A DNA stretch of 48,925 nucleotides, from the IMG/VR virus record IMGVR_UViG_3300045988_151382; one strand, 5' to 3'. The stretch comes from a virus (taxonomy: Duplodnaviria; Heunggongvirae; Uroviricota; Caudoviricetes). The notes beneath the pieces are model-generated. The model did not search any database. It was not told where the DNA came from and worked only from the letters and a program-made list of their open reading frames with translations. A program made the translations under genes and the position numbers. Of the stretch, positions 16,274-46,266 are shown in pieces; the first letter of the stretch is position 1; every line of letters begins with the position of its first letter.

Positions 16274-18130
16274 CTATATGGTTACGCCTTTACTTATAAC
16301 TCTACGGCGTCTTCTACGTATACCTGACGAGTTCTGCACATACACATTACCTCGCATTTCCTGTTCGGCAAGCCAGTTAAAATTAGGGTTCAGAATTTCC
16401 ATCGCGGCAGTTGCATAGTTACGGCAATCAAGAGGCTCGTTACGCTCGTAGACTTTCACCCACTTTTCTTTTGTCTGCCCATTTTTATATTCAAATATTT
16501 TTTTCTCTGATAATAATCCTTTAAAGTATTCGGTATCATATCCTCTGTCAGAATCTAATGGGAAATGCATATAACCAGGACCAGGATCATGTAGTTTAAT
16601 TCTTGCCATGATGGTCCCTTTACCATCATCAACCCCCAAATTAAACAACATAGCACCCACACGGTTATTATTACTTGGCTTTCCTATAAATGGTAAACCT
16701 ACCCCACCACGCCCCCTGATAGAGTATATTCGCCTTGATTCTCTCAGCTTAGTGAAGCGATATACCTCTGTCGTAAAATGCCCACCAGAGTCAATACAAA
16801 CAGAAGAAATCTGTAATTTTCGACCGTCACGGAATGACCAGCTACGGAGTAAGTATTCATCAAGTTGTTTCCAGACAACATCTTGTGCGGGATCACCTGG
16901 GAATATTTTATATTCTATCCCCCATGACTCCTTACCTTTTCCCCAACCGACCAATTCACAAACTAAATACGTGTCCTGTACGTCAACACCAGCACTTAAC
17001 AATAAAACATCATCTGGTAAAAACTCTTCAAACCTTATTCTGCGTTGCAACAAGTATTCAGGATCGATATCGTCTTTAGCATCCTCTTTCCATGGCTCAC
17101 CCAGCTTAAGGTTAATAAACTCCATTAATCCATTTTTATCGCGGTTTCTGGTTGCTTCCGTAAATTCTTCAACCAGCTCTGACAATGCAACCCACGGGGA
17201 GTAAAGACTGTTAATATGAAAACCAACAATACCTTTAACTCCAGTATGTTCAGCTATCCATACCCCCTTTGCCAACCAATCAACGTCTGGTTTACCAGAT
17301 CCGCGCATAATCCCGCCGCACTCACAGCACTCATATCTGGCCGTTTCCGGTAACGCCTCACCTGAATCGCTCTTATCCCATCTGACTTGCGACCATTTCA
17401 TCACCTGCATGGTGCCACAACATGGGCAAGGAACATGGTAGTAACGCTGATCGGAGAGCTTAAACCACTTGTGGATTTTGCTCGTTTCCTCCAAAACAGG
17501 AGTAGAAACAAAAACTTTCTTACGATTATGAAAGTTGGTAGTACGCTGAATACCTAGTTTTAGTGGGTCGCCCTCCTGCGTCACACCGTAACGATCAATC
17601 TCATCACCTAACAGTATTCGAATTGGCCTGGATGCAAGACCTGCTGGGGAATTAGCACCAACAAGTGCTATATATCCACCAGCGTAATGCTTCATACGTA
17701 TAGTCGTGCTGGACTTTTTGGCTGCACCGCGCCCCTCTTTCCCTTCATGCAGCTTGTGTTTCAAACCAGGGGAATATTTGAACGTCGGATCAATACGCTC
17801 CTTTGAAAAAGCCTCAGCCGCCTCTACCGTTGGATAAATCATCAACTGAGGAGATGGCTCCTGATCTGCAAAGTAACCCATAACATTTAGCTGTAATTCG
17901 GATTTACCAATTTGCGAGCTACATTGCATCACTACTGTTTCTGTATCAGCGTCACCAATAACATCCATTGGTTCACGCAAATATGGCACTCGGCTTGTAC
18001 GCCACGGCCCTGGCTCTGGAGACGTTCCCGGCGCTACATGACGATACTTATCAGCCCATTCGGAAACAGTTAGCCGTGATTTAGGGCGAAGCGCACGGAA
18101 AAAAGCGGTGCTCCATACTGTTTCGCCCAT
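16274..18130 (-). CDS. Terminase large subunit, lambda gpA-like
   Basis: 618 aa; cysteine cluster CPCCG...CCECGG and ATPase-like N-terminus; followed by gpW and portal. Confidence 0.8.
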   Translation of the reverse strand: MGETVWSTAFFRALRPKSRLTVSEWADKYRHVAPGTSPEPGPWRTSRVPYLREPMDVIGDADTETVVMQCSSQIGKSELQLNVMGYFADQEPSPQLMIYPTVEAAEAFSKERIDPTFKYSPGLKHKLHEGKEGRGAAKKSSTTIRMKHYAGGYIALVGANSPAGLASRPIRILLGDEIDRYGVTQEGDPLKLGIQRTTNFHNRKKVFVSTPVLEETSKIHKWFKLSDQRYYHVPCPCCGTMQVMKWSQVRWDKSDSGEALPETARYECCECGGIMRGSGKPDVDWLAKGVWIAEHTGVKGIVGFHINSLYSPWVALSELVEEFTEATRNRDKNGLMEFINLKLGEPWKEDAKDDIDPEYLLQRRIRFEEFLPDDVLLLSAGVDVQDTYLVCELVGWGKGKESWGIEYKIFPGDPAQDVVWKQLDEYLLRSWSFRDGRKLQISSVCIDSGGHFTTEVYRFTKLRESRRIYSIRGRGGVGLPFIGKPSNNNRVGAMLFNLGVDDGKGTIMARIKLHDPGPGYMHFPLDSDRGYDTEYFKGLLSEKKIFEYKNGQTKEKWVKVYERNEPLDCRNYATAAMEILNPNFNWLAEQEMRGNVYVQNSSGIRRRRRRVISKGVTI

Positions 18131-18135
18131 GAGGT

Positions 18136-18696
18136 TTATTCTTCCTGCTTAATAAATCGGGATTCCTGGAGCGCCTGAAGCGCAAAATTAATTTCGTCTT
18201 CAATAATGCGTTCGATCTCCCTGGCTGTTTTGCCTTCACAACGGGGAGCTGCTCTTGGAGCAATACTAAATAAGCGGCTACGCAATTCATTAGCTGCCAG
18301 AAATGCATCATCCCTGACCGCATCTTTAGCGATGAGAGAGCCTTCCTTTTCTTCAAATTCAAGGCGTTTCAGCTTTGCCTGATAAATTTTTTCTGCGGTC
18401 TTAGCCTTGTTGAATTGCACCGCAACACCGGAAGTACCACCAGCTAATCCGGCATCATCAGCGGGTAACTCTGGTTGTTCCGAAGATATCCCATGCCCTC
18501 TTTTTCCATTTTCAGCAGATACCTCACGACCAACCTGTCGGCTCGCTTCATAAGCCGCACTGGCTTTATCAAAATCCAGCTTGCCGCTTTTCAGCACTGG
18601 AATGCGACCGGAACGACAGAGCTTCGTAACCATTGCCGGAGAAATACCTTTCCGGCGGGCAAACTCTGACTTACTGACGATGGCCATTACTTGCAA
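18136..18696 (-). CDS. Terminase small subunit, Nu1-like HTH
   Basis: 186 aa ORF directly upstream of the large subunit; N-terminal HTH-like segment KSEFARRKGISPAMVTKL. Confidence 0.55.
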   Translation of the reverse strand: MQVMAIVSKSEFARRKGISPAMVTKLCRSGRIPVLKSGKLDFDKASAAYEASRQVGREVSAENGKRGHGISSEQPELPADDAGLAGGTSGVAVQFNKAKTAEKIYQAKLKRLEFEEKEGSLIAKDAVRDDAFLAANELRSRLFSIAPRAAPRCEGKTAREIERIIEDEINFALQALQESRFIKQEE

Positions 18697-19277
18697 CCAT
18701 TAGCAAGATACTGAACAAATCCCTCATGCGTTTCATGCGCGTCGTGGTACTGACGATAAACATCCAGCAACAATGCAATTTCCATATCCGTCGCGGGAAT
18801 ACGTTCTTTATCAATAGCCAGGTACTTAATTTGAACAACAGGGGAAGAATTATCGTCTTCTTCCTGCGGCTGTTCATCGCTTAACATTTCGTCAAGCTCT
18901 GCATCATTAAACCCAAGCAGATCAATATCAAAATCATCATCCATTAACTCTTTGACTTCTTCGGCCAGAAGCTGCATATCCCAGCCAGCATTTAAGGCCA
19001 GCTTGTTATCTGCAATCCTGTACGCCTTCTTCTGTTTTTCAGAAAGGTTACTCAACCGAATCGCCGGAACTTTATCCATTTCCAGAATTTCGGCTGCTGC
19101 AAGCCGACCATGCCCCGCAATCAGTTCATTCTTTTCATCGATCAGCACAGGATTAGTGAAACCGAACTCACGGATACTGTTCACCAACTGTTCAACCTGC
19201 TCATCTGAATGAGTCCGTGAATTTTTGGCGTATCTGAGCAGCTTACCGACTGGTAAATATTCGATTTTTAGAGCCAT
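18687..19277 (-). CDS. ParB-like nuclease domain protein
   Basis: 196 aa; motif NPVLIDEKNELIAGHGRLAAA characteristic of ParB/Srx N-terminal domain; paralog of 21944..22567. Confidence 0.7.
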   Translation of the reverse strand: MALKIEYLPVGKLLRYAKNSRTHSDEQVEQLVNSIREFGFTNPVLIDEKNELIAGHGRLAAAEILEMDKVPAIRLSNLSEKQKKAYRIADNKLALNAGWDMQLLAEEVKELMDDDFDIDLLGFNDAELDEMLSDEQPQEEDDNSSPVVQIKYLAIDKERIPATDMEIALLLDVYRQYHDAHETHEGFVQYLANGCK

Positions 19278-19834
19278 TTTTTAACCGCCATAACACAACA
19301 GGTTAAAGAAAACTGTTTAACTTATTGATACTAAAAGAGAAAAATGACGATCTTTTTACTCATAAAAAATCACACAAACCAGCATAATTATCTGATTTTA
19401 TTAAGTTTTTATAAGTAAAAAGGATCTTGCGATGGTGTTTTGGTTAAAAGATTGGATGTATTTACATGATTTATAACGATTTTTATCAGAACAACATCAC
19501 ATTGGTTAAAGATCTGCACGTATCTTGATGATCTAAAAGAAAATTTTCTACTTTCTTTTTACCAGCACAAATACAGCAAAAAATCACGTTTTCCCGATAT
19601 TTTTCAATGAGATGAGTAAATTTCTTTTACCGCAACTTTTAACCTAACTTTTTTCACGTTTAGCTAGCCGAACATCGGGGTTCGAATGACCCGCATCCAA
19701 CGCTTTTGGCCAGAAGGACCCAATTCTGCCGGACGATGAAACGATGCTCGTGCTCCCCCACAGACAGCCAGCGAGCGACGCTACAGAACACAGTGAATAC
19801 CCCCTGCATAACAACACCATCAACCACACGATGA

Positions 19835-20554
19835 TTAACGAGAGAACGTCTTAGAAAGGATGTCATCAATAGCCTTTGTGACTTCATCAGCAAACGCATC
19901 CTCACCAGCACGCAGCGCCACGCCATGCCAATCAAGACGCTGCGAATAGTTAGGTTGCTGGATGAACGTAAGGATCAACGTAGGACGCCGCCCAACGCGC
20001 TGCCAGACGCCTGGTTGAAGCGGGTTACTTGTACCAGGTCGAACAACAAAAAACTCCGTAGGCTTGCCCTGACGGCGATTTTGATGCGCATCTCGCTGAA
20101 CTCTTAGGCCAGATAAGACCTGCTGTAATTGCCCCCGCGAAATATTCCCGTATTTGTCCAGCTTTGCGCCGGGACCAGGAGCAAGCTGCCAGCCGTTAGG
20201 CAAATATCCACCAGCCCTTAGCGCCCCTTCTGAGCGTTTGTACTGTCGTTGGCCGCCTTCGATTTGCGGAGTCAACGTTACAGGGGCTGGCGTTCCACCC
20301 CATTCACGAGCATACACAATGGCTGTAGGATCACTCTTCTTTGCGGCTAAAACGTAAGTAGAGTTCTGAATCCACGGCGTGGGCCTGTCAAATACCCGAT
20401 TAATTTCATCCTTAATCGCAGCCTGAGAAGCCTTTGCCGTTCTGGTTGCTGTAAGCGCCATTGCGAACGGCAATTCGCGTTCTTCAATGCGCTGGAGTTG
20501 CCGTTGAATATCCTGAGAAGAAAAATCCATCTTTATCTCAATTCTGTCAGCCAC
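19835..20554 (-). CDS. Hypothetical protein
   Basis: 239 aa ORF between ParB-MTase fusion and a 550-bp non-coding region; no motif recognised. Confidence 0.4.
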   Translation of the reverse strand: MADRIEIKMDFSSQDIQRQLQRIEERELPFAMALTATRTAKASQAAIKDEINRVFDRPTPWIQNSTYVLAAKKSDPTAIVYAREWGGTPAPVTLTPQIEGGQRQYKRSEGALRAGGYLPNGWQLAPGPGAKLDKYGNISRGQLQQVLSGLRVQRDAHQNRRQGKPTEFFVVRPGTSNPLQPGVWQRVGRRPTLILTFIQQPNYSQRLDWHGVALRAGEDAFADEVTKAIDDILSKTFSR

Positions 20555-20570
20555 CAGCGCCTCCTACACA

Positions 20571-21950
20571 CTACTTAATCAGCGGCCGGAAAGCCGCCAG
20601 CACATCATCAGATCGTCCGATTGTTGAACCACCAGGCAACGGCAACTCAAACTCAAAACGAACAGCTTTCTCCAGACTCGCCCAACTAAGGGAATCATCG
20701 TTAATGACGTGCAAATACCAGCTCTTACAGTTGAATATTGACCGCTTAATCCTGAAACCATGTACACGACACAACTGCTTCACTTCATCATCAGAGTGAA
20801 ACTTCTGGTAAAACCAGTGCCCCTTCCGGTACAACGCGGTAAAACCGTTATGATCAATAAAATAAAGCCGGCTTTTGGAACTCGCCGCTTGTGTTTGCTT
20901 CAGGACTGTTTCCAGCTCTCCACGGCTACGACCAGAAAAGAATATTGACCCACCAGCTTTACACAGGCCTTTCAGAACCGTCAGAACAGACCATTCAGCC
21001 TCGACACTATCGACCGAGTTCAAAACGCTATCGCAAATCACGTAGTCGTAACGCCCTCGCGTTTTTAAGTCGTCCACCAGCGTATCAATCATCCGGTTTG
21101 TTGCGGTCCTATCCAGAGTGTTTCCAGCGCCCTTACGGCGGAAAAGCTCGAGATCATGCAGGTTATATCCCTTTGCCCTGAGCATTCGCGCGTAGTCTCC
21201 CTGCCCCGAACCAAAATCAATTCCTCTTGGCGTCTTGGCAATGATCGGGAGGATCAACGACTCATACAGGTTTGATTTCAGGCTGCCACCATTACGCAAC
21301 CGCATAAGCTGCGCATACGTCTGGATGTATGTTGTTTTCTCCAGATGAGAATACTCAAATACACCATAAGTTTTATTCAGATAACTTTGGTATTTTTCCT
21401 TCTCAACATCAGGGATCACAAACACCGTTAGCGGTGTGCGCGTCATTTTCGCTGCTAATGCATACTGAGCACAGTGAATAACCTCACCAGACTGAGTAGC
21501 AACACAACCACCCCACGGACCATACTTGATAACCAGTTCCGCTATGTTCTTTCGAACATATGCCATTTTCGCGCGCATATTGCCTGAGATCTGGCTTGCC
21601 GATACCTGAACAAAACCATGCTTATCTTCCAGACCGGACACCCTGCAACGCTCATCTCCGCTATCAAAATCCGTTCCGTTATGCAGTTGGTTAAACCGTA
21701 CTTCGTCGTATACCGTCGTTTCACAGGGCAACACATACACCGCAGCACGCGTTATTCCCAACTTACGTAGCGCCTTCGTCCTTTGGTGTCCCGCCACCAG
21801 CAAATCGCCGCGCACTATCAATGGCTTCACAAGCCCCAGCTCCCTGACGCTTTCCGCCAGCCTCGCAAGATCATCCTCACCGATAAAACGCGGGTTATAT
21901 TCCGCGCCGCGTAGGTGCGTTATGTCGTAATTCAGGTGAAGCATCAGCAC
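20571..21950 (-). CDS. ParB-like N-terminal domain fused to class I SAM-dependent methyltransferase domain
   Basis: 459 aa; N-terminal KPLIVRGDLLVAGHQR (ParB-like); C-terminal IDFGSGQGDYARML (GxGxG SAM motif), later acidic and DSV motifs; no DPPY/NPPY motif seen. Confidence 0.6.
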   Translation of the reverse strand: MLMLHLNYDITHLRGAEYNPRFIGEDDLARLAESVRELGLVKPLIVRGDLLVAGHQRTKALRKLGITRAAVYVLPCETTVYDEVRFNQLHNGTDFDSGDERCRVSGLEDKHGFVQVSASQISGNMRAKMAYVRKNIAELVIKYGPWGGCVATQSGEVIHCAQYALAAKMTRTPLTVFVIPDVEKEKYQSYLNKTYGVFEYSHLEKTTYIQTYAQLMRLRNGGSLKSNLYESLILPIIAKTPRGIDFGSGQGDYARMLRAKGYNLHDLELFRRKGAGNTLDRTATNRMIDTLVDDLKTRGRYDYVICDSVLNSVDSVEAEWSVLTVLKGLCKAGGSIFFSGRSRGELETVLKQTQAASSKSRLYFIDHNGFTALYRKGHWFYQKFHSDDEVKQLCRVHGFRIKRSIFNCKSWYLHVINDDSLSWASLEKAVRFEFELPLPGGSTIGRSDDVLAAFRPLIK

Positions 21951-22567
21951 ACCTCCCCAGCCAGCAATGCGGATACAAATCCGATATAGCTGCCATTATC
22001 ATCAACATAACGAGACACCGCGCAGTCAAAACGATCCGCTTCCTCATCCGTTGCCGGGATTTTATGACCTCCAAATGACAGGTACTGAACTTTTACGCCT
22101 GATTTGGCCTCATCCTTCTCAAATGGGATATCCATACCCTCTGTGTCATCGTAGACCGCCGCACTCAATAAGTTATCCAGTTCGCGCTGAGTAAAACCAA
22201 TTGAGTCCAGAGCAAAATCATCGGCCGCAAGATCTGCAAGCTCCGCGCTTAACAACTCTTCATCCCAACCAGCATTCAGCGGAATACGGTTGTCGGCCAG
22301 ACGATATGCCTTCTTCTGATTCTCCGTTAGCCCAGCCAGAACAATGCAGGGAACATCATCCATCCCCAACTGAGTGGCCGCAGCAATTCGACCATGACCA
22401 GCAATTATAACGTTGTTCTCGTCTATCAGGATCGGATTAGTCCATCCGTACTCCTGTATGCTGGCAACAATCTGATCTACCTGCTCCACGGAGTGTGTGC
22501 GAGCGTTCTTTTCATAACCAATCAACACAGAAAGTGGTAAAGAAACCACATTAAGATGTTTTGTCAT
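21944..22567 (-). CDS. ParB-like nuclease domain protein
   Basis: 207 aa; motif NPILIDENNVIIAGHGRIAAA; clear paralog of 18687..19277. Confidence 0.7.
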   Translation of the reverse strand: MTKHLNVVSLPLSVLIGYEKNARTHSVEQVDQIVASIQEYGWTNPILIDENNVIIAGHGRIAAATQLGMDDVPCIVLAGLTENQKKAYRLADNRIPLNAGWDEELLSAELADLAADDFALDSIGFTQRELDNLLSAAVYDDTEGMDIPFEKDEAKSGVKVQYLSFGGHKIPATDEEADRFDCAVSRYVDDNGSYIGFVSALLAGEVC

Positions 22568-24553: not shown

Positions 24554-25141
24554 CTATGCCACTTGCCAGAGAGCATCATGCAACTGGATACCTCCATTGC
24601 ACTGGTTGCCCCAGCCATGCCAACCATCAGGTAAATCACCGCGAGCAAACAGCTCAATACGAGGAACATCACCTAACAGCCTTACCAGCTTGTCACGAAC
24701 CACATCAGGCTTCCGAGAATGCTCCAGACGAGGCGATGTAAACGACTGAATGATCCCCGCATCAAGGCGGGTCGGCAATTTGCCTTTTACCGCAAACAAG
24801 CAATCTTCACTGTTTGCACGAGTCATATGCCCCATCCCCATCACCAGCTTATCTGGTTGTCGGCTACCACATTTGTTCCATGTGAAGCCCTTCATGGTCA
24901 TAAGCCTGAATCCCCATGCTTTCACCACCAGCAACGCTTCTTCTGGCTGAGTCGGAACCCACCACATGGCCAACAAACACGATTCAGGATTAGCAAGCTG
25001 CCAGACAGGAATACGAGCAATATCCTCAGCTTTCATCGTTGGATACTTAAAACCAGCTCCACGATTCCCATCCTTACACTTATCTTTGTATTCCCAGGGG
25101 GGATCTGCATAAATCAGATTAAACAATGCAATTGCCTCCAT
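24554..25141 (-). CDS. MT-A70 family DNA N6-adenine methyltransferase
   Basis: 195 aa; N-terminal YADPPWEY motif (DPPW catalytic motif of the MT-A70 family). Confidence 0.7.
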   Translation of the reverse strand: MEAIALFNLIYADPPWEYKDKCKDGNRGAGFKYPTMKAEDIARIPVWQLANPESCLLAMWWVPTQPEEALLVVKAWGFRLMTMKGFTWNKCGSRQPDKLVMGMGHMTRANSEDCLFAVKGKLPTRLDAGIIQSFTSPRLEHSRKPDVVRDKLVRLLGDVPRIELFARGDLPDGWHGWGNQCNGGIQLHDALWQVA

Positions 25142-25449: not shown

Positions 25450-25525
25450 TGGTGGCCCCTACCGGATTTGAACCGATGACCGTGCGATTATGAGTCGCCT
25501 GCTCTAACCACTGAGCTAAGGGGCC
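25450..25525 (-). tRNA. tRNA with CAU anticodon (Met or Ile2/lysidine type), CCA encoded
   Basis: Minus-strand sequence GGCCCCTTAGCTCAGTGGTTAGAGCAGGCGACTCATAATCGC...GGTTCAAATCC...AGGGGCCACCA; 7-bp acceptor stem, D-loop AGCTCAGTGGTTAGAGC, T-loop TTCAAAT. Confidence 0.8.
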
Positions 25526-36905: not shown

Positions 36906-36925
36906 AACACATGGAGTCTCGACAA

Positions 36926-37579
36926 ATGACTATATCTGTAGGTATTTTCAACGGAAAAGGCGGCGTAACCAAATCAACCATTGCTCGTGCTTTAGCAGTT
37001 GCTTATGCAAAGGCTGGCTGGAATGTATGCCTGATCGATATGGATGTGCTTAACGGAACGGTAACGCGTTGGGTACAACGCAGAATGGCCAACAATATCG
37101 AACCTGCAATCGCGGCGCAGCCGTGCGGCACGCCATCACAAGTCCAGAAAATCATCGAATCAGAAGTATACGACCTGGTTATCGTTGATGGCGGTGCCTA
37201 CGCATCTGAATCAGTACCGAAGCTCTCTGAATTTCTGGATATGGTTATTTTGCCAACCAGATTCTCTACCGATGACCTGGAAACCACCGTTAACACAGCT
37301 CACGGCATCGTTAAAAAGGGTGTACCAATCAAGAAAATTTGCATGGTGTTTTCCGGCGCGGCTGAAAACGAAGCTGACTATATTGAAGCCCAAGAGTACC
37401 TGGCTAATACGCCATACTTTGTTGTCGATAAGTACATTCCCCACAAGCCAGCTCTGAGCAAAGCTCAGGATAAAGGCTTAAGCCTCATTGAGTGCTCATA
37501 CGTTGCGCCACGCAAAAAAGCAGACGACGTTATTCAGGGGATTATCAACCAGCTTGAGGCTCTGACTACTGCCGCGTAA
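36926..37579 (+). CDS. ParA-like partition ATPase (short type)
   Basis: Deviant Walker A GKGGVTKST near the N-terminus when started at 36926 (ORF track starts 36911). Confidence 0.7.
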   Translation: MTISVGIFNGKGGVTKSTIARALAVAYAKAGWNVCLIDMDVLNGTVTRWVQRRMANNIEPAIAAQPCGTPSQVQKIIESEVYDLVIVDGGAYASESVPKLSEFLDMVILPTRFSTDDLETTVNTAHGIVKKGVPIKKICMVFSGAAENEADYIEAQEYLANTPYFVVDKYIPHKPALSKAQDKGLSLIECSYVAPRKKADDVIQGIINQLEALTTAA

Positions 37580-38093: not shown

Positions 38094-38115
38094 AAAAAAG
38101 GCCCCCGAAGGGGCC
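38094..38115 (-). terminator. Rho-independent terminator (minus strand)
   Basis: Stem GGCCCC/GGGGCC with 4-nt loop followed by TTTTTT on the minus strand, just downstream of small ORF 38122..38244. Confidence 0.55.
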
Positions 38116-38121
38116 TAATCG

Positions 38122-38244
38122 CTACTTGCTGCTAATGTTTATCGTCACATTCAGAGCGTTATCAGTAATCTTCCAACCCTCTCCATGTGGCGTAAACAAA
38201 GCTCCAGTAACAACGATAAAAATACACATACAGTATTTTTTCAT
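38122..38244 (-). CDS. Small hydrophobic peptide (about 40 aa)
   Basis: MKKYCMCIFIVVTGALFTPHGEGWKITDNALNVTINISSK from internal Met of ORF 38122..38304; own terminator. Confidence 0.3.
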   Translation of the reverse strand: MKKYCMCIFIVVTGALFTPHGEGWKITDNALNVTINISSK

Positions 38245-38559
38245 TGTATGGCCCTTACAGGCCGTTTCACGGCATCCCCACCGACGAAAACAACGCGAGA
38301 GCAAGCACGGCTGCTTGTGCTTGCATGTACGGCAACGGAGAATCCTCCCCTAAAGTCGGTGCCCGGGTGCGAATCGGCGGGAAGGTCCACAGGTATTTTA
38401 CGATTATTTTAAGATTAGTAATAGGAAAGAAATTAAACGAAAAAACTCGTTTATTTTCACAAAATCAGTAACCTACCCACAATCTGTGAGTTTGCAGGCA
38501 CAACAAGAACCACAATTTTTTGAAGCATAATAGTGGACTATTATTACCTTTTGGGTAAA

Positions 38560-38840
38560 ATTAACTTGCTGCTTGTGCTTGCGTGGTTGTTTATACAACA
38601 ACGTAATGCTGAAAGGACCGCGAATCCGATCAGCACGAAAGAACCGTCCTCAATAGGGCGGTTTTTTTGTTTCTGCCTACCAATAAACCCACGCTATGTG
38701 GTTGTCTCTGTTAAAATCCCGCCGTATTGACATGAATGCGCCATTGGTGGACACTTTCCGAGCCGTAGCAAAATCTACGGTCGGGATTGGAACCCCGTAG
38801 ACACAATGGCGCATACCGCGTTAGCGGTTTTTTTATGCGT
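38560..38840 (+). ncRNA. Candidate regulatory RNA region upstream of the antirepressor operon; two intrinsic terminators
   Basis: Terminators at about 38644..38668 (ACCGTCCT/AGGGCGGT stem then T7) and 38815..38834 (ACCGC/GCGGT stem then T7); no ORF; repeated GATTGGAACC element. Confidence 0.45.
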
Positions 38841-39000
38841 AAAGCACTGCTACACCCAAATTATGGTGGGGCGTGCGGGGGAGTCGTAAGACTCGCCGGT
38901 TCGTCATTGTGTCCGGTAGTTCCAACCCTGCACGTCTCACCACCCAATGATTGGAACCTGACGGTGGTGAGTATCCTTAACCTTTAAGGGAATCATCACA

Positions 39001-39192
39001 ATGACAAACCTACCCCATGACTATTACGTCAACCTCGTAAAGATCCTTCTCAAGAAAGCCTCATACGCCGATAAATTCCGCCTGGCTGAAATCATCGAGC
39101 GCGAAGCTATGCGCATCGCCAGCAACGATAACGCTGTTTCTGTCGCAAAAATCTCCCTCGTAACCAAAGTAGTTATGGGAGGTGCAAAATGA
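39001..39192 (+). CDS. Small protein translationally coupled to antirepressor
   Basis: 63 aa ORF whose stop overlaps the ant ATG (ATGA). Confidence 0.4.
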   Translation: MTNLPHDYYVNLVKILLKKASYADKFRLAEIIEREAMRIASNDNAVSVAKISLVTKVVMGGAK

Positions 39193-40457
39193 AAACGCTT
39201 CCGACCGTTAACACCCTACAGCCTATCCTGCATAACCAAATCCCTGTCATTACTACCGAGTTACTGGCACAGCTTTACGGCGTATCTCCTGTACGCATTC
39301 GACAAAATCATCATGAGAATAAGGAACGCTTCATTGAAGGTAAGCACTACTTCAAAATTGAAGGTAACGAACTTCGAGAGTTAAAGCACAAAGTGACTCA
39401 AGATAATGATGTGAAGAACAAAAACTCTTTAAGAGATTCAGTTAATGACGCCCCCTCTAAAAGAGAGAGCGACGAGCACAGAGTAGTTTTAAACTACTCT
39501 GTTAACCACAAGGTAACTAAAAGTCACTCTGTGAAAATCGCCCGTAACGTTCGCTCCCTCATTCTCTGGACAGAACGCGGGGCTGCACGTCACGCTAAAA
39601 TGCTCGAAACCGATCAGGCATGGGATGTATTCGAACGGCTGGAAGACTGCTACTTCAACCAGAACGCGCAAACGGCCGCGACCGTAACCGTCTCACCAAA
39701 CAATGCTCGTGAGGTTGTCGATACGCTCAACGCTAAACCAATGTATTACGTTAAGGTGTGCAACAACGAGCCACTCACAACCTCAGCCGATGTTGCCCAA
39801 GCATTCAGCACCACAAACAATTCCATCGTTATGGCCATCGATGCGTTACGCATTCCTCGCACGGCTGCGGCGCGTCACTTCTTTAAAGAACAACGACCGC
39901 TGGAAGGAAGCGACCGCGAAATAACAATCTATCGCATGACAAAAGACGGATTTACCTTGCTCATGGAAAGTATCGACGGTCCAGGCGTGAAGGATATCAA
40001 GCTGGCCTACATTGAAGCCTTTAACGCTATCAGCAGCGTGTTAAAGGCAGAATACGAGCGAATGCTATACAACCGACTGTATCAGGAAACAAAGATTATC
40101 CGAACGGCAACAGAACATCATCGGCTATTAACGGAACCAAACTACCGCAAGACACTAATCAAAGAGTTTGACAAGGCGACGGAGAAAACTAAAGCGGCAC
40201 TAAATCTACCAACAATGACTAAAGATGATGTGATATCAGCCTTACTTCTTGATCTGCTCAGAAACGCCAGAGCACTTATCAGTTTTGACGAAAACCTGAA
40301 TCCTCAGCTCAAGCTACTACCACCGACAGGCAAAGTAGTCGACCAAGCAGATCACAACAGCATACTCAGCGTACTGGATGCAAACCTGCCAGCCAGGACA
40401 CTACAGGATCTGATAAAAACATGTGCTGATAAGCTGGCACAGAAAAGCAGACCATAA
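39189..40457 (+). CDS. Antirepressor (ORF6N/KilA-N-type N-terminal domain plus Ant-like C-terminal domain)
   Basis: 422 aa; N-terminal IPVITTELLAQLYGVSPVRIRQNHHENKERFIEGKHYFKIEG resembles ORF6N/Bro-N-type domains. Confidence 0.6.
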   Translation: MKTLPTVNTLQPILHNQIPVITTELLAQLYGVSPVRIRQNHHENKERFIEGKHYFKIEGNELRELKHKVTQDNDVKNKNSLRDSVNDAPSKRESDEHRVVLNYSVNHKVTKSHSVKIARNVRSLILWTERGAARHAKMLETDQAWDVFERLEDCYFNQNAQTAATVTVSPNNAREVVDTLNAKPMYYVKVCNNEPLTTSADVAQAFSTTNNSIVMAIDALRIPRTAAARHFFKEQRPLEGSDREITIYRMTKDGFTLLMESIDGPGVKDIKLAYIEAFNAISSVLKAEYERMLYNRLYQETKIIRTATEHHRLLTEPNYRKTLIKEFDKATEKTKAALNLPTMTKDDVISALLLDLLRNARALISFDENLNPQLKLLPPTGKVVDQADHNSILSVLDANLPARTLQDLIKTCADKLAQKSRP

Positions 40458-41222: not shown

Positions 41223-41266
41223 TTCTGGCGCTTACATTACACCACCATAAAACGATCCGTAAAGGA

Positions 41267-41539
41267 TCATTTGATCTCTTGTTCCAATTCTGACGACACT
41301 TTAACCTTTTCCCATACAAGGGTTTGCAGCCTTAACAGAATCGCATCTTTATCAAGGTGTGAAAGATCCTTAACCATATCGTCAAATGACAGAACGCGAA
41401 TGGCCATCTCAATGACCCTCGGCGGCTCCCCCTTCTCATATCGCTTATATGTAGCCAACGATATCCCAAATTCTTCGGCGGCTCGCTCCTGCGTCCAGTT
41501 CATCCCACGACGCCATAATTTCAATTCATAACCCGTCAT
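41267..41539 (-). CDS. XRE-family HTH regulator
   Basis: Start at internal ATG 41539 preceded by GAGGAGGA; sequence LKLWRRGMNWTQERAAEEFGISLATYKRYE is a typical HTH. Confidence 0.6.
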   Translation of the reverse strand: MTGYELKLWRRGMNWTQERAAEEFGISLATYKRYEKGEPPRVIEMAIRVLSFDDMVKDLSHLDKDAILLRLQTLVWEKVKVSSELEQEIK

Positions 41540-41567
41540 AGCATCCTCCTCGCACAATATTAACACT

Positions 41568-41594
41568 CGCAAAGTGTCAAAATGACACTTTGCG
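41568..41594. promoter_or_regulatory. 27-bp perfect palindrome, probable operator
   Basis: CGCAAAGTGTCA-AAA-TGACACTTTGCG, about 30 nt upstream of the HTH gene start. Confidence 0.55.
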
Positions 41595-43979: not shown

Positions 43980-44255
43980 CGAACATATTCACAGGCAAAG
44001 CCTGCGTAAGTTAAATAAAGAAAGTCTTAATAAAAGAAAGTGATTTTGCATTTATTTGTTTAGTGCATCTATTATAAAAAACCATTTGCATATACATATC
44101 AAAACTGTGGATAACTTTATTAGCCGATGCCTGTAAAGGCGATATTTTTGCTGTGTCCAGGTTTAGAGAAAATTAATTTAGACTATTTTTTGAACAGATA
44201 TTTTATTGCGACGTAGATAATCCTCCGGTAAAACCGGATTCATCATTCAGGTGGG
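43980..44255. other. Candidate plasmid replication origin region with consensus DnaA box
   Basis: AT-rich region immediately downstream of repA; TGTGGATAA (reverse complement TTATCCACA) at about 44106..44114. Confidence 0.5.
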
Positions 44256-45104
44256 TTAATGTTGGAGTGATTTCCAGGTCTTTCTTAGCCTGTTATAACG
44301 CTGCTCAACGAGGGATCGTAAATATGCAAGGTCAGCACCTGGATACATGCCATCAGCAAATTCCTGGCTAACCTCTCTAGTGATTTGATGACGAAGTTCG
44401 GCCTCTCCCTTTTCCCGGACAAGACGCGCAGCTCTCTCCGCTGCTTTCTGTTTTGCCTTTATCTCTCTGGCCGTCTTCCTCTGGCGCCATACATTCTCCA
44501 TCTGCTCCTGAATAACAATACGCTTATAATCAGCCTCCGTTATCGCTTTTTTAAGCCGTTCGCTATTCTTCGCATTGAAGTAATTAAGTTTCTGGCTAAC
44601 CGCACGTCTCCATGCTTGTTCAGTAATACCAACGGTTTCCAGCAGTTGATCACGAATCTCTATTTTCGCTGGCCAATACTGTTTATTCACCCGATCCCAG
44701 CGACGTTCATAATCAATAAAACCTAACGCTTTCAGTTGCGACAACGCCCTTGTACAGCGCGTTATAGACTTGTTCCCAGCTTCGGATACGGTAGACAGGC
44801 CGCAAAAATCAGCCAACGCCTCAGCACTAGCCAGAACCCGCTTAGAAATGATGTTTACATGGTGCAAAATCGCAGCGATCACAGCATTAATCGCCCGACG
44901 ACGATGCTCGTTTATCCGGCGCTTCCGCCCTGACGGTTGATTAACGTAGAACGCAACCTCACACGTAAGATCACGACCATTAATGCGCTGTAAAGCATCA
45001 GATAACACCAGCGGCAGCTTGTGCGTATGGTGCTTTGGAGGCTGGAACTCCGGCGACAAATTACAAACGTAAGCGGAACGTAGAGACGGCATTGGTCTAT
45101 CCAT
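44256..45104 (-). CDS. repA: Replication initiator RepA, IncFII RepA1-like
   Basis: Segment CGLSTVSEAGNKSITRCTRALSQLKALGFIDYE resembles recalled IncFII RepA1 block; start uncertain (ORF open to 45236, internal ATG at 45104). Confidence 0.65.
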   Translation of the reverse strand: MDRPMPSLRSAYVCNLSPEFQPPKHHTHKLPLVLSDALQRINGRDLTCEVAFYVNQPSGRKRRINEHRRRAINAVIAAILHHVNIISKRVLASAEALADFCGLSTVSEAGNKSITRCTRALSQLKALGFIDYERRWDRVNKQYWPAKIEIRDQLLETVGITEQAWRRAVSQKLNYFNAKNSERLKKAITEADYKRIVIQEQMENVWRQRKTAREIKAKQKAAERAARLVREKGEAELRHQITREVSQEFADGMYPGADLAYLRSLVEQRYNRLRKTWKSLQH

Positions 45105-45136
45105 ATGTTCGCTCTTGCGTCCACGGAAAACCAACG

Positions 45137-45229
45137 TATAATGGGAGTTGTCGAGGCGCCCATGGATTGTTGTTGTTGGTTTTCCGTGGATGTCGCAAGA
45201 AGCCCGCAGATTTATCTGCGGGCTTTTTG
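45137..45229 (+). ncRNA. CopA-like antisense RNA candidate opposite the repA leader
   Basis: TTGCGT-N16-TATAAT promoter, 15-bp inverted repeat CCACGGAAAACCAAC/GTTGGTTTTCCGTGG, then terminator GCCCGCAGA-TTTA-TCTGCGGGC-TTTTT. Confidence 0.5.
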
Positions 45230-45702
45230 TTTCCATATCTGGTCAGTTTCCAACCAGACACCCACAATCATAACCACGTTACGTGGTTTTAAGAGAACTC
45301 TACCACAACACTTTCGGTCATGCACGAAGTCTCTCACTGATCGAACGATAATCCACCAGTAAAAGGATCTAAATTGGATCTCGTTTTGCGAGCATCATAC
45401 TACTGGCCTAACTCCAGTCAATGATTCCCAGCCAGAAACCTGCGGTAAACTCATCGTTCAGCAATATGCTGTCCGGCTTCAAAGATAAGGTGACATCATC
45501 CCTTAACAGCGCGGCCAGTTCAGTTAAAGGGCTGTTCTGATTTAATGCTGGCCACTCATACCTGGTAATAAGTGGTCAGTCTTAACACTCACCATTTGAT
45601 TGCACCCGTGTTGACGATTTGTTACTGGATATCAGACACGCTGGATAGCCAGTAGAAACATACCATTAAAATTATTACAATAATTGGTCACATGATTATC
45701 TT

Positions 45703-46266
45703 ATGCTGAATAATAAAGATATGAATATTAATGAACTTAAAGACTGTATTCACTATGAAGTAATCGGTAGCGAGCGTCCTTTCTCCTGGCGAAAGGCAAT
45801 TGTTCGCGCAATAAAACATAGAAGGGTTCGTTATTTATTTTGGTGGCGCATAGCCAAATACCTTTTTGATAAAGGCGGATACTGTCGGAAGATTGCGGGA
45901 AAAATAGAACGTTTCATTCTTGATAAATATAATGTAACAGTCCCTTTAACTGTAAATATAGGGAAAGGCTTTGATATTTCTTATCTCAACAGTGTTGTTA
46001 TCGGTCACAAAGTAACAATCGGTGAAAATTGTTCAATTAAGCCCGGAGTAACTATTGGACTTCGCGGGGAATTTAATGATATGGATATTGTTATAGGGCA
46101 TAATGTGACCATTGGTTGTAATGCCACCATTCTTGGTGGCAAAGTGCGTATAGGAAACAATGTCACAATAGGTGCTCATGCATTGGTATTGCATGATATT
46201 CCTGATGATTCAACATTCATCACTAAATTTCAGTCTGAAGTTATCTGCTCGTCCTCCCGAACATAA
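45703..46266 (+). CDS. Hexapeptide-repeat (left-handed beta-helix) acyltransferase
   Basis: 187 aa; tandem hexapeptide repeats [21 protein letters not shown]...[34 protein letters not shown]; AT-rich codon usage. Confidence 0.7.

Follow-up and report, generated by a model that had tools for sequence, protein, structure and literature searches.

The region examined here is the intergenic interval 19278–19834 of IMG/VR record IMGVR_UViG_3300045988_151382, a DNA sequence of 48,925 nt (the window) that represents a ~49-kb Escherichia coli phage-plasmid, namely a myovirus whose head genes resemble those of lambda and which encodes an IncFII-type RepA. All genes from ~35.4 kb down to 0.9 kb are on the − strand, and this block encodes a gpA-type large terminase (TerL), a lambda-B-type portal, a ClpP/Nu3-type protease, a tail sheath and a tape measure. 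An earlier note made from the sequence had placed genes for a ParB-like protein, the small terminase subunit (terS) and TerL downstream of the interval, and an MT-A70 methylase gene on the same element (24554–25141); both placements were borne out. Our analyses indicate that the interval is very probably the cohesive-end site (cos) of this temperate myovirus, which is kept as a ~49-kb plasmid, and that this cos is organised like that of phage lambda. The features of the locus are listed below in the direction of genes and packaging, that is, along the − strand, with bp 1 corresponding to window position 19691 here and throughout.

19835–20554, − strand: open reading frame (ORF) of 239 aa, flanking the interval; last gene of the genome before cos
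19725–19834, − strand: variable spacer downstream of the 239-aa ORF's stop codon, neither conserved nor coding
19715–19721, − strand: cosQ-like heptamer GGGTCCT, 30 nt 5′ of the first nick (−30 to −24)
19678–19693, − strand: cosN, with nicks between 19692 and 19691 (− strand) and between 19680 and 19679; cohesive end 5′-GGTCATTCGAAC-3′ (19691 to 19680) and 2-bp flanks
19662–19667, − strand: CTAGCT, bp 25–30 counted from the nick, within the cosN–cosB spacer; conserved, possibly I2-like
19636–19644, − strand: first repeat, GGTTAAAAG, bp 48–56; candidate R3-equivalent terS site
19623–19631, − strand: second repeat, GGTAAAAGA, bp 61–69; conserved
19555–19563, − strand: repeat GGTAAAAAG, bp 129–137
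19530–19533: fourth GATC, outside any repeat and not conserved; also lost in vB_YpM_41
19504–19512, + strand: inverted repeat GGTTAAAGA(TC), bp 180–188; its 3′ flank holds the GATC at 19511
19442–19450, + strand: inverted repeat GGTTAAAAG, bp 242–250; its ortholog is GAGTAAAAA in the 72% identity group
19409–19426, + strand: left arm of an inverted repeat (− strand GATCCTTTTTACTTAT); holds the GATC at 19423
19385–19397, − strand: exact consensus for integration host factor (IHF), AATCAGATAATTA (WATCARNNNNTTR), bp 295–307; centred between the inverted-repeat arms
19349–19363, − strand: right arm of the inverted repeat, ATGAGTAAAAAGATC, bp 329–343; holds the GATC at 19349; GTAAAAAGA is invariant
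19318–19330, − strand: second IHF consensus match, TATCAATAAGTTA; weakly conserved, kept among divergent relatives only in L012
19301–19309, + strand: inverted repeat GGTTAAAGA, bp 383–391; conserved as GGT[TA]AAAGAA
18687–19277, − strand: ParB/Srx N-domain protein, 196 aa; first gene after cos (Pfam ParB_N, E = 3.8e-8; PHROG 620, E = 4.6e-75)
18136–18687, − strand: terS, 183 aa (PHROG 57, terminase small subunit, E = 1.4e-41)
16274–18130, − strand: TerL, lambda gpA family (Pfam GpA_ATPase, 1.6e-75; GpA_nuclease, 5.2e-84)

The interval was matched in 72 complete E. coli genomes at 96–100% identity, in 71 of which it resides on a plasmid of ~46–58 kb. It was also matched on plasmids of E. fergusonii, E. 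albertii and Klebsiella and, more distantly, of Salmonella, and it is present in five phage records that include the Yersinia phages vB_YpM_39, vB_YpM_41 and vB_YpM_44 (~49 kb). The earlier description of the interval as non-coding was upheld, as it contains only short ORFs and is left blank by RefSeq in nearly all of the 72 E. coli records. The longest ORF wholly inside it (19644–19829, − strand, 61 aa) was considered as a hidden gene and rejected, having no PHROG match and occupying a stretch that is unconserved and rich in insertions and deletions in relatives. The description of the interval as AT-rich proved accurate for 19278–19650 (25–31% GC) but not for 19651–19834 (52–56% GC). In the variable spacer the identity of divergent relatives is 0–0.6 with many insertions and deletions, and its RNA fold showed no significant structure (z = −1.05). 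A search of Rfam with 19150–19950 identified no family, even at E-values up to 1.

The positions of the genome ends were determined from records of related phages. The records of vB_YpM_39 and vB_YpM_41 start with GGTCATTCGAAC CCCGATG and end with GTTGGATGCG, while that of vB_YpM_44 starts with CCCGATG, 12 nt later, and ends with GATGCGGGTCATTCGAAC, closing with the 12-mer GGTCATTCGAAC. These Yersinia phage records thus have two break points, exactly 12 nt apart and both inside the interval, which is the pattern expected if 12-nt 5′ overhangs were filled in and assembly of the virion DNA then trimmed either of the two terminally redundant copies. Independent ends were found in two distant relatives, L122 and L123, whose TerL proteins are 57–58% identical to that of the window. 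In L122 (JBJEVY010000029.1, a contig from a metagenome-assembled genome, MAG) base 1 is the base homologous to bp 1 (G1), the sequence reading GGTTGCGCGAAC / CCCAGAATGTGC CTAGCC, with CCCAGAA after GGTTGCGCGAAC. In L123 (CAAGIL010000179.1, likewise a MAG contig) the contig end consists of an Illumina adapter (GCTCTTCCGATCT in the orientation of the locus) fused to the homologous G1, reading GGTAGGCGCGGC / CCCGATTTCGTC CTAGCT with CCCGAT after the 12-mer, and the position of the adapter marks a physical DNA end. L123 has been binned as Rikenellaceae and L122 as Candidatus Spyradenecus, assignments that are doubtful since both are phage contigs with TerL proteins this similar to that of the window.

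Taken together, the ends are unique, non-permuted and staggered by 12 nt, as read from sequence records and not from end mapping on this element. The overhangs are probably 5′, a polarity in keeping with the family, since contigs that start at G1 and a record that ends with the 12-mer fit filled-in 5′ overhangs and not chewed-back 3′ overhangs. The earlier note had anticipated a cos or pac site in the interval. A cos does lie there (cosQ at 19715–19721, cosN at 19680–19691), but in the part with normal GC content, 150–340 bp from the GATC sites to which that note had drawn attention. The termini do not map elsewhere, for example to ~18700 directly upstream of terS, which the note had named as the outcome that would contradict its proposal.

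The sequence 5′ of the first nick links this site to lambda. The window reads TTGGGTCCTTCTGGCCAAAAGCGTTGGATGCG / GGTCATTCGAAC / CCCGAT, compared to ACGGGTCCTTTCCGGTGATCCGACAGGTTACG / GGGCGGCGACCT / CGCGGG in the retrieved lambda ends, and the lambda right end is GGGTCCTTTCCGGTGATCCGACAGGTTACG. GGGTCCT(T), the first seven bases of which we take to be lambda's cosQ heptamer, is identical in the two phages in both sequence and −30 register, and the chance of this heptamer occurring at a fixed offset is 6e-5. It is kept in all relatives that retain the upstream sequence except L121, and is found at −29 in L054 and L086. Published analyses describe cosQ as a highly conserved site of 7 bp (PMC4669245). 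An exact-pattern scan for cosQ-N22-23-cosN in one genome per species gave no match. On the other side of cosN, the register of bp 25–30 is constant across all lineages, including those with as little as 57% TerL identity, and the sequence there is CTAGCT, CTAGAT, CTAGCC or GTAGCT.

Conservation of the locus was assessed in an alignment of 22 distinct sequences, which comprised the window type, a group of IMG/VR sequences with 71–75% identity to it, and L012. The best-conserved block of the entire intergenic region is 19722–19630, which spans cosQ, cosN, CTAGCT and the first two repeats, and the cosN block is 100% conserved among the aligned relatives. In all 22 sequences the distance from cosN to the start codon of the ParB-like gene is 400–402 nt despite ~30% divergence, which hints that helical phasing, or the layout of the array between them, is under constraint. 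The more diverged L054 and L086, with terS proteins 51–53% and ParB-like proteins 61–64% identical to those of the window, retain the same order of 239-aa gene, cosQ, an identical cosN, AT-rich stretch, ParB-like gene and terS. A different arrangement is seen in L130 (SKES01001618.1), which is identical to the window from a point 5′ of cosQ up to bp 69 and then continues with unrelated sequence; the junction, at 19623/19622 directly after the second repeat, is a mosaic or an insertion.

From bp 44 onwards the DNA consists of an AT-rich array of ~370 bp that extends up to the start codon of the ParB-like gene and contains eight to nine copies of GGTWAAARGA in both orientations. With GAGTAAAAAG-type variants included, copies start at bp 48, 61 and 129 (forward), 181, 243 and 271 (reverse), 331 (forward), 384 (reverse) and 406 (forward). 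All five matches to GGTTAAARR in the 48.9-kb window are in 19278–19644, and seven of its nine matches to GGTWAAARR are in 19278–19650, the other two being isolated. In a post hoc test, none of 5000 dinucleotide shuffles of the AT-rich stretch had five or more copies of GGTTAAA. Orthologous repeat sites persist in relatives with exchanges of T and A. At the first repeat TTAGGTTAA is invariant in all relatives, and its position, bp 48–56, coincides with that of R3 in lambda (bp 50–65) and N15 (bp 48–60) (PMC9026076); terminase has been reported to cut 47 ± 2 bp from its R site (PMC9026076). In L123 a direct repeat, AGGTGGTAACTA, is found at bp 44–55 and bp 61–72. The window, L015, L054 and L086 all have a site at bp 129–130 (as GGTTAACA in the last two), with AGTGAAAGG instead in L012, and every lineage conserves the reverse-orientation site at bp 181–182. 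In L054 and L086, whose motif is GGTTAACA, the positions of the sites at bp 48, 129 and 181 (reverse) are unchanged.

The distal part of the array contains an inverted repeat, for which a search returned paired arms at 19352–19382 and 19392–19422. These arms co-vary in relatives, being ACTTAT/ATGAGT in some and ATCCAT/ATGGGT in others. The IHF consensus between them is one of only nine matches in the whole window, and its conservation in the 71–75% identity group extends to all but the N positions; L054 and L086 lack it.

The proteins encoded downstream are consistent with such a site. TerL is 28% identical to lambda gpA (BLASTP, E = 3e-62). Residues 3–36 of terS match a helix-turn-helix of the Cox/excisionase type, and in its AlphaFold2 model residues 1–50, with a predicted local distance difference score of ~88, form an N-terminal beta-alpha-alpha-wing (winged-helix-like) domain. 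A search of the Protein Data Bank with the terS sequence gave no match. The predicted recognition helix of terS reads ISPAMVTKLC in the lineages that share the repeat motif and LSRAAITKLC where the motif differs. We therefore infer that 19278–19648 is an extended cosB-like array whose repeats are bound by terS, and not by the ParB-like protein, with IHF binding at its consensus site as well.

Several observations weigh against our interpretation. The ends are known from sequence records and not from mapping of virion ends for this element, and the Yersinia records, whose choice of start is undocumented, are labelled circular. None of 13 metagenome contigs of the same lineage that were scanned ends at cosN, which would be expected if the element were present there in plasmid form. 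Of the 12 bases of the cohesive end just three agree with lambda, and its 3′ flank is CC, in contrast to the conserved CG of lambda-like phages. For the array, an unbiased test, asking for any 7-mer that occurs five or more times, was satisfied by 21% of the shuffled versions of the AT-rich stretch; this is not a significant enrichment, so the argument for the repeats is mainly one of conservation. The array is also about three times the length of lambda cosB and its IHF site is ~300 bp from cosN, and part of it may therefore serve another purpose. Lastly, BLASTP detected no similarity between terS and lambda Nu1, the fold of the terS N-terminal domain matched Xis and BldC in Foldseek searches with TM-scores of 0.63–0.71 but without significant E-values, and the ParB-like protein is an alternative candidate for binding the repeats.

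Comparison with known packaging sites places the locus closest to lambda in plan, though not in every detail. As in lambda, cosQ, cosN, a cosB-like array and the terminase genes follow one another in the direction of packaging, GGGTCCT is at −30, the nicks are staggered by 12 nt, TerL is of the gpA family, and cosN has partial two-fold symmetry (8 of 16 positions here versus 10 of 16 in lambda). The CG 5′ of the first nick is also kept, and the flanks of cosN have been stated to be conserved (PMC4669245). The first terS-type repeat, at ~bp 48–56, takes the place of R3, the repeats occur in both orientations, and an IHF consensus is present. The differences from lambda are that TerL has just 28% identity to gpA and terS no sequence relationship to Nu1, that the array has ~370 bp and eight to nine sites as opposed to 120 bp and three R sites, that the conserved IHF site is at bp 295–307 and not at ~bp 75–100, and that a ParB/Srx-like gene is found between cos and terS in a myovirus that is kept as a plasmid. 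A narrow group of lambda-like cohesive ends has been defined by similarity to GGGCGGCGACCT, especially at bp 1–6 (PMC4669245). With three shared bases of 12, GGTCATTCGAAC falls outside that group, although the site would work like lambda cos.

N15 also combines a plasmid prophage with a gpA-type terminase, and its "simple" cos has a single critical R3 (terS) site at bp 48–60 and no IHF site (PMC4669245, PMC9026076). L122 and L123, in which cos is only ~120–160 bp upstream of terS, resemble that simple form. N15, however, is a siphovirus and a linear plasmid with a short cosB and with ends that are identical to those of lambda at 10 of 12 positions, whereas in the window the array is long, with many sites, and the end sequence is unrelated. 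Our locus is mildly unusual in having a long array of fixed length, a ParB/Srx gene between cos and terS, and a cosQ that has survived at 28% TerL identity.

Based on these comparisons, packaging may proceed as follows. On the − strand the order is the 239-aa gene, the variable spacer, cosQ (19721–19715), cosN, a conserved spacer, the array, the ParB-like gene, terS and terL. The N-terminal winged helix of terS would bind the repeats, first at the R3 position, and IHF together with intrinsic bending of the AT tracts would help terS to place TerL on cosN. The gpA-type terminase would then nick cosN, 30 nt after the start of cosQ and with a 12-bp stagger, generating the 5′ cohesive ends GGTCATTCGAAC and allowing packaging to start. 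At the next cos on the concatemer, cosQ and cosN would end it.

A different role for the AT-rich part of the interval, 19278–19650, is unlikely but deserves consideration, namely that it mainly controls transcription of the ParB-like/terS/terL operon as a late promoter or operator, with a regulator or the ParB-like protein occupying its repeats and IHF-centred inverted repeat, and with cos proper confined to bp 1 to ~70. That possibility is compatible with cosN at 19680–19691. It would account for the IHF site and inverted repeat being 70–150 bp upstream of the ParB-like start codon and ~300 bp from cosN, too far for a lambda-type R3-I1-R2 arrangement, for L122 and L123 managing with a short cos-to-terS distance, and for the junction in L130 occurring directly after bp 69. 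Yet the analysis gave no sign of the late promoter that the earlier note had envisaged: the interval has no P2/186-type late promoter dyad (TGT-N12-ACA), and a scan of both strands for sigma-70-like promoters and intrinsic terminators found none, although an activator-dependent promoter is conceivable. Furthermore, the motif is upstream of no other operon, with just the two isolated copies elsewhere in the window; the repeat positions at bp 129 and 181 are conserved along with that at bp 48; and the co-orientation of the genes from ~35.4 to 0.9 kb would permit transcripts to read through cos, as they do in lambda. Bp 240–414, the distal half of the array, could nonetheless regulate the ParB-like gene.

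The GATC sites of the AT-rich stretch had been viewed in the earlier note as a cluster that might put packaging or a promoter under methylation control, as described for P1 pac. The adenine methylation would then come from host Dam or from the MT-A70 enzyme of the phage. There are indeed four, at 19349, 19423, 19511 and 19530 (close to the 19348, 19423, 19512 and 19535 given there), compared to 0.73–0.94 expected locally (Poisson P ~0.007–0.016). Two of them were retained in most of the 18 distinct divergent relatives of 71–75% identity in which conservation was counted (19423 in 16 and 19349 in 13), and the element encodes a ParB_N-methyltransferase protein in addition to MT-A70. However, the window has 133 GATC sites in its 48,925 bp, and at least four within 187 bp arise somewhere in 79% of random placements, so that the clustering is not significant window-wide. 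A tighter group of four in 111 bp (41254–41365), probably due to chance, lies inside a − strand ORF (41267–41572). Three of the four sites are the 3′ tail (...AAAGATC) of repeat copies, GGTTAAAGATC, AAGTAAAAAGGATC and GAGTAAAAAGATC, which makes the cluster mainly a by-product of the repeated motif. The sites at 19511 and 19530 were kept in only one and none of the 18 relatives, respectively, and L054 and L086 maintain the same gene order and architecture with zero to one GATC in the AT-rich stretch.

P1 pac, for its part, has seven TGATCA/G hexamers flanking the cut, is recognised by PacA/PacB and initiates headful packaging. Like the locus, it belongs to a plasmid prophage, precedes packaging genes and contains several GATC sites, and the element also has a P1-like c4/isrK-ant block. 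In contrast to P1, the terminase here is a gpA-type cos enzyme and not PacA/PacB, the ends are defined and cohesive and not permuted, none of the four GATC sites comes closer to the nick than ~150 bp, and neither a common hexamer nor conserved hexamers flanking the cut were found. A gpA-type enzyme combined with distant, poorly conserved GATC sites argues against a methylation switch like that of P1 pac, which we regard as scarcely credible here.

It is also very unlikely that the AT-rich stretch is a plasmid maintenance site, either a replication origin with iterons and GATC sites or a centromere for the adjacent ParB-like protein. Such a role would suit an element that is a plasmid in nearly all of its E. 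coli matches, the combination of AT-richness, repeats, IHF site and GATC sites in one stretch, and the ParB/Srx-domain gene immediately downstream; moreover, ParB boxes likewise flank an IHF site in P1 parS. No DnaA box is seen in the interval, however, and the initiator and the ParA locus are not adjacent to it but are encoded elsewhere, which makes an origin or centromere role improbable:

44256–45236, − strand: IncFII-type RepA
43980–44255: AT-rich stretch with the DnaA box TGTGGATAA (44106–44114), directly downstream of repA
36911–37579: ParA-type ATPase, a locus outside the interval

The AT-rich stretch just downstream of repA is most likely the plasmid origin. In addition, the repeats in the interval begin where R3 would be expected from cosN and diverge along with terS, and a ParB/Srx gene is also found beside cos in L121, a phage contig from a MAG.

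A final possibility concerns the cos reading itself. It is quite unlikely, but conceivable, that the array of fixed length with its IHF-centred inverted repeat, the ParB/Srx gene between cos and terS, and two more ParB_N paralogues a short way upstream of cos make up a complex for packaging initiation or cos protection, in which a ParB-like protein, and not terS only, loads on the repeats. If so, a ParB-loaded complex could keep cos uncut during plasmid replication or couple segregation to packaging, which would represent a new accessory layer on a lambda-type cos, and the conserved GATC sites at the tips of the inverted repeat could add an input from replication state via hemimethylation. Three genes with ParB/Srx N-domains bracket cos (21944–22567; 20571–21950, a ParB_N domain fused to a methyltransferase domain; and 18687–19277), and in the distant relative L121 the ParB-like gene adjoins cos on the other side.

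Other features of the window bear on the element as a whole. A block resembling P1 immI comprises isrK (38762–38834, + strand) and a C4 antisense RNA (38859–38947, + strand) directly upstream of an anti-repressor ORF (39189–40457, + strand), and together with the IncFII-type RepA and the ParA ATPase it identifies the element as a phage-plasmid. This block is adjoined by a full-length ryfA-like RNA (38094–38390, − strand, 143 bits). A tRNA-Met (CAT) gene (25450–25525) was found in addition to the MT-A70 methyltransferase gene, and a hexapeptide-repeat acyltransferase gene (45703–46266) beside the tail-fibre genes could have a lysogenic-conversion function. Our literature search found no account of cos in this phage-plasmid family or of a role for ParB-like genes adjoining terS; the paper on vB_YpM_HQ103 concerns an unrelated phage of 32 kb.

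The identification of this lambda-plan cos has several consequences. It removes the speculative account of the GATC cluster as a methylation control. It also fixes the genome ends and the packaging mode (cos, with 12-nt ends) for this phage-plasmid family, which aids annotation, the choice of a zero point, and the development of cosmids and transduction tools. The persistence of lambda's cosQ heptamer and its 30-nt register at 28% gpA identity represents a constraint on how TerL reads cosQ. These ~48-kb phage-plasmids of E. coli, Salmonella and Klebsiella are a widespread and uncharacterised family, of which the reference strain ATCC 25922 is one carrier.

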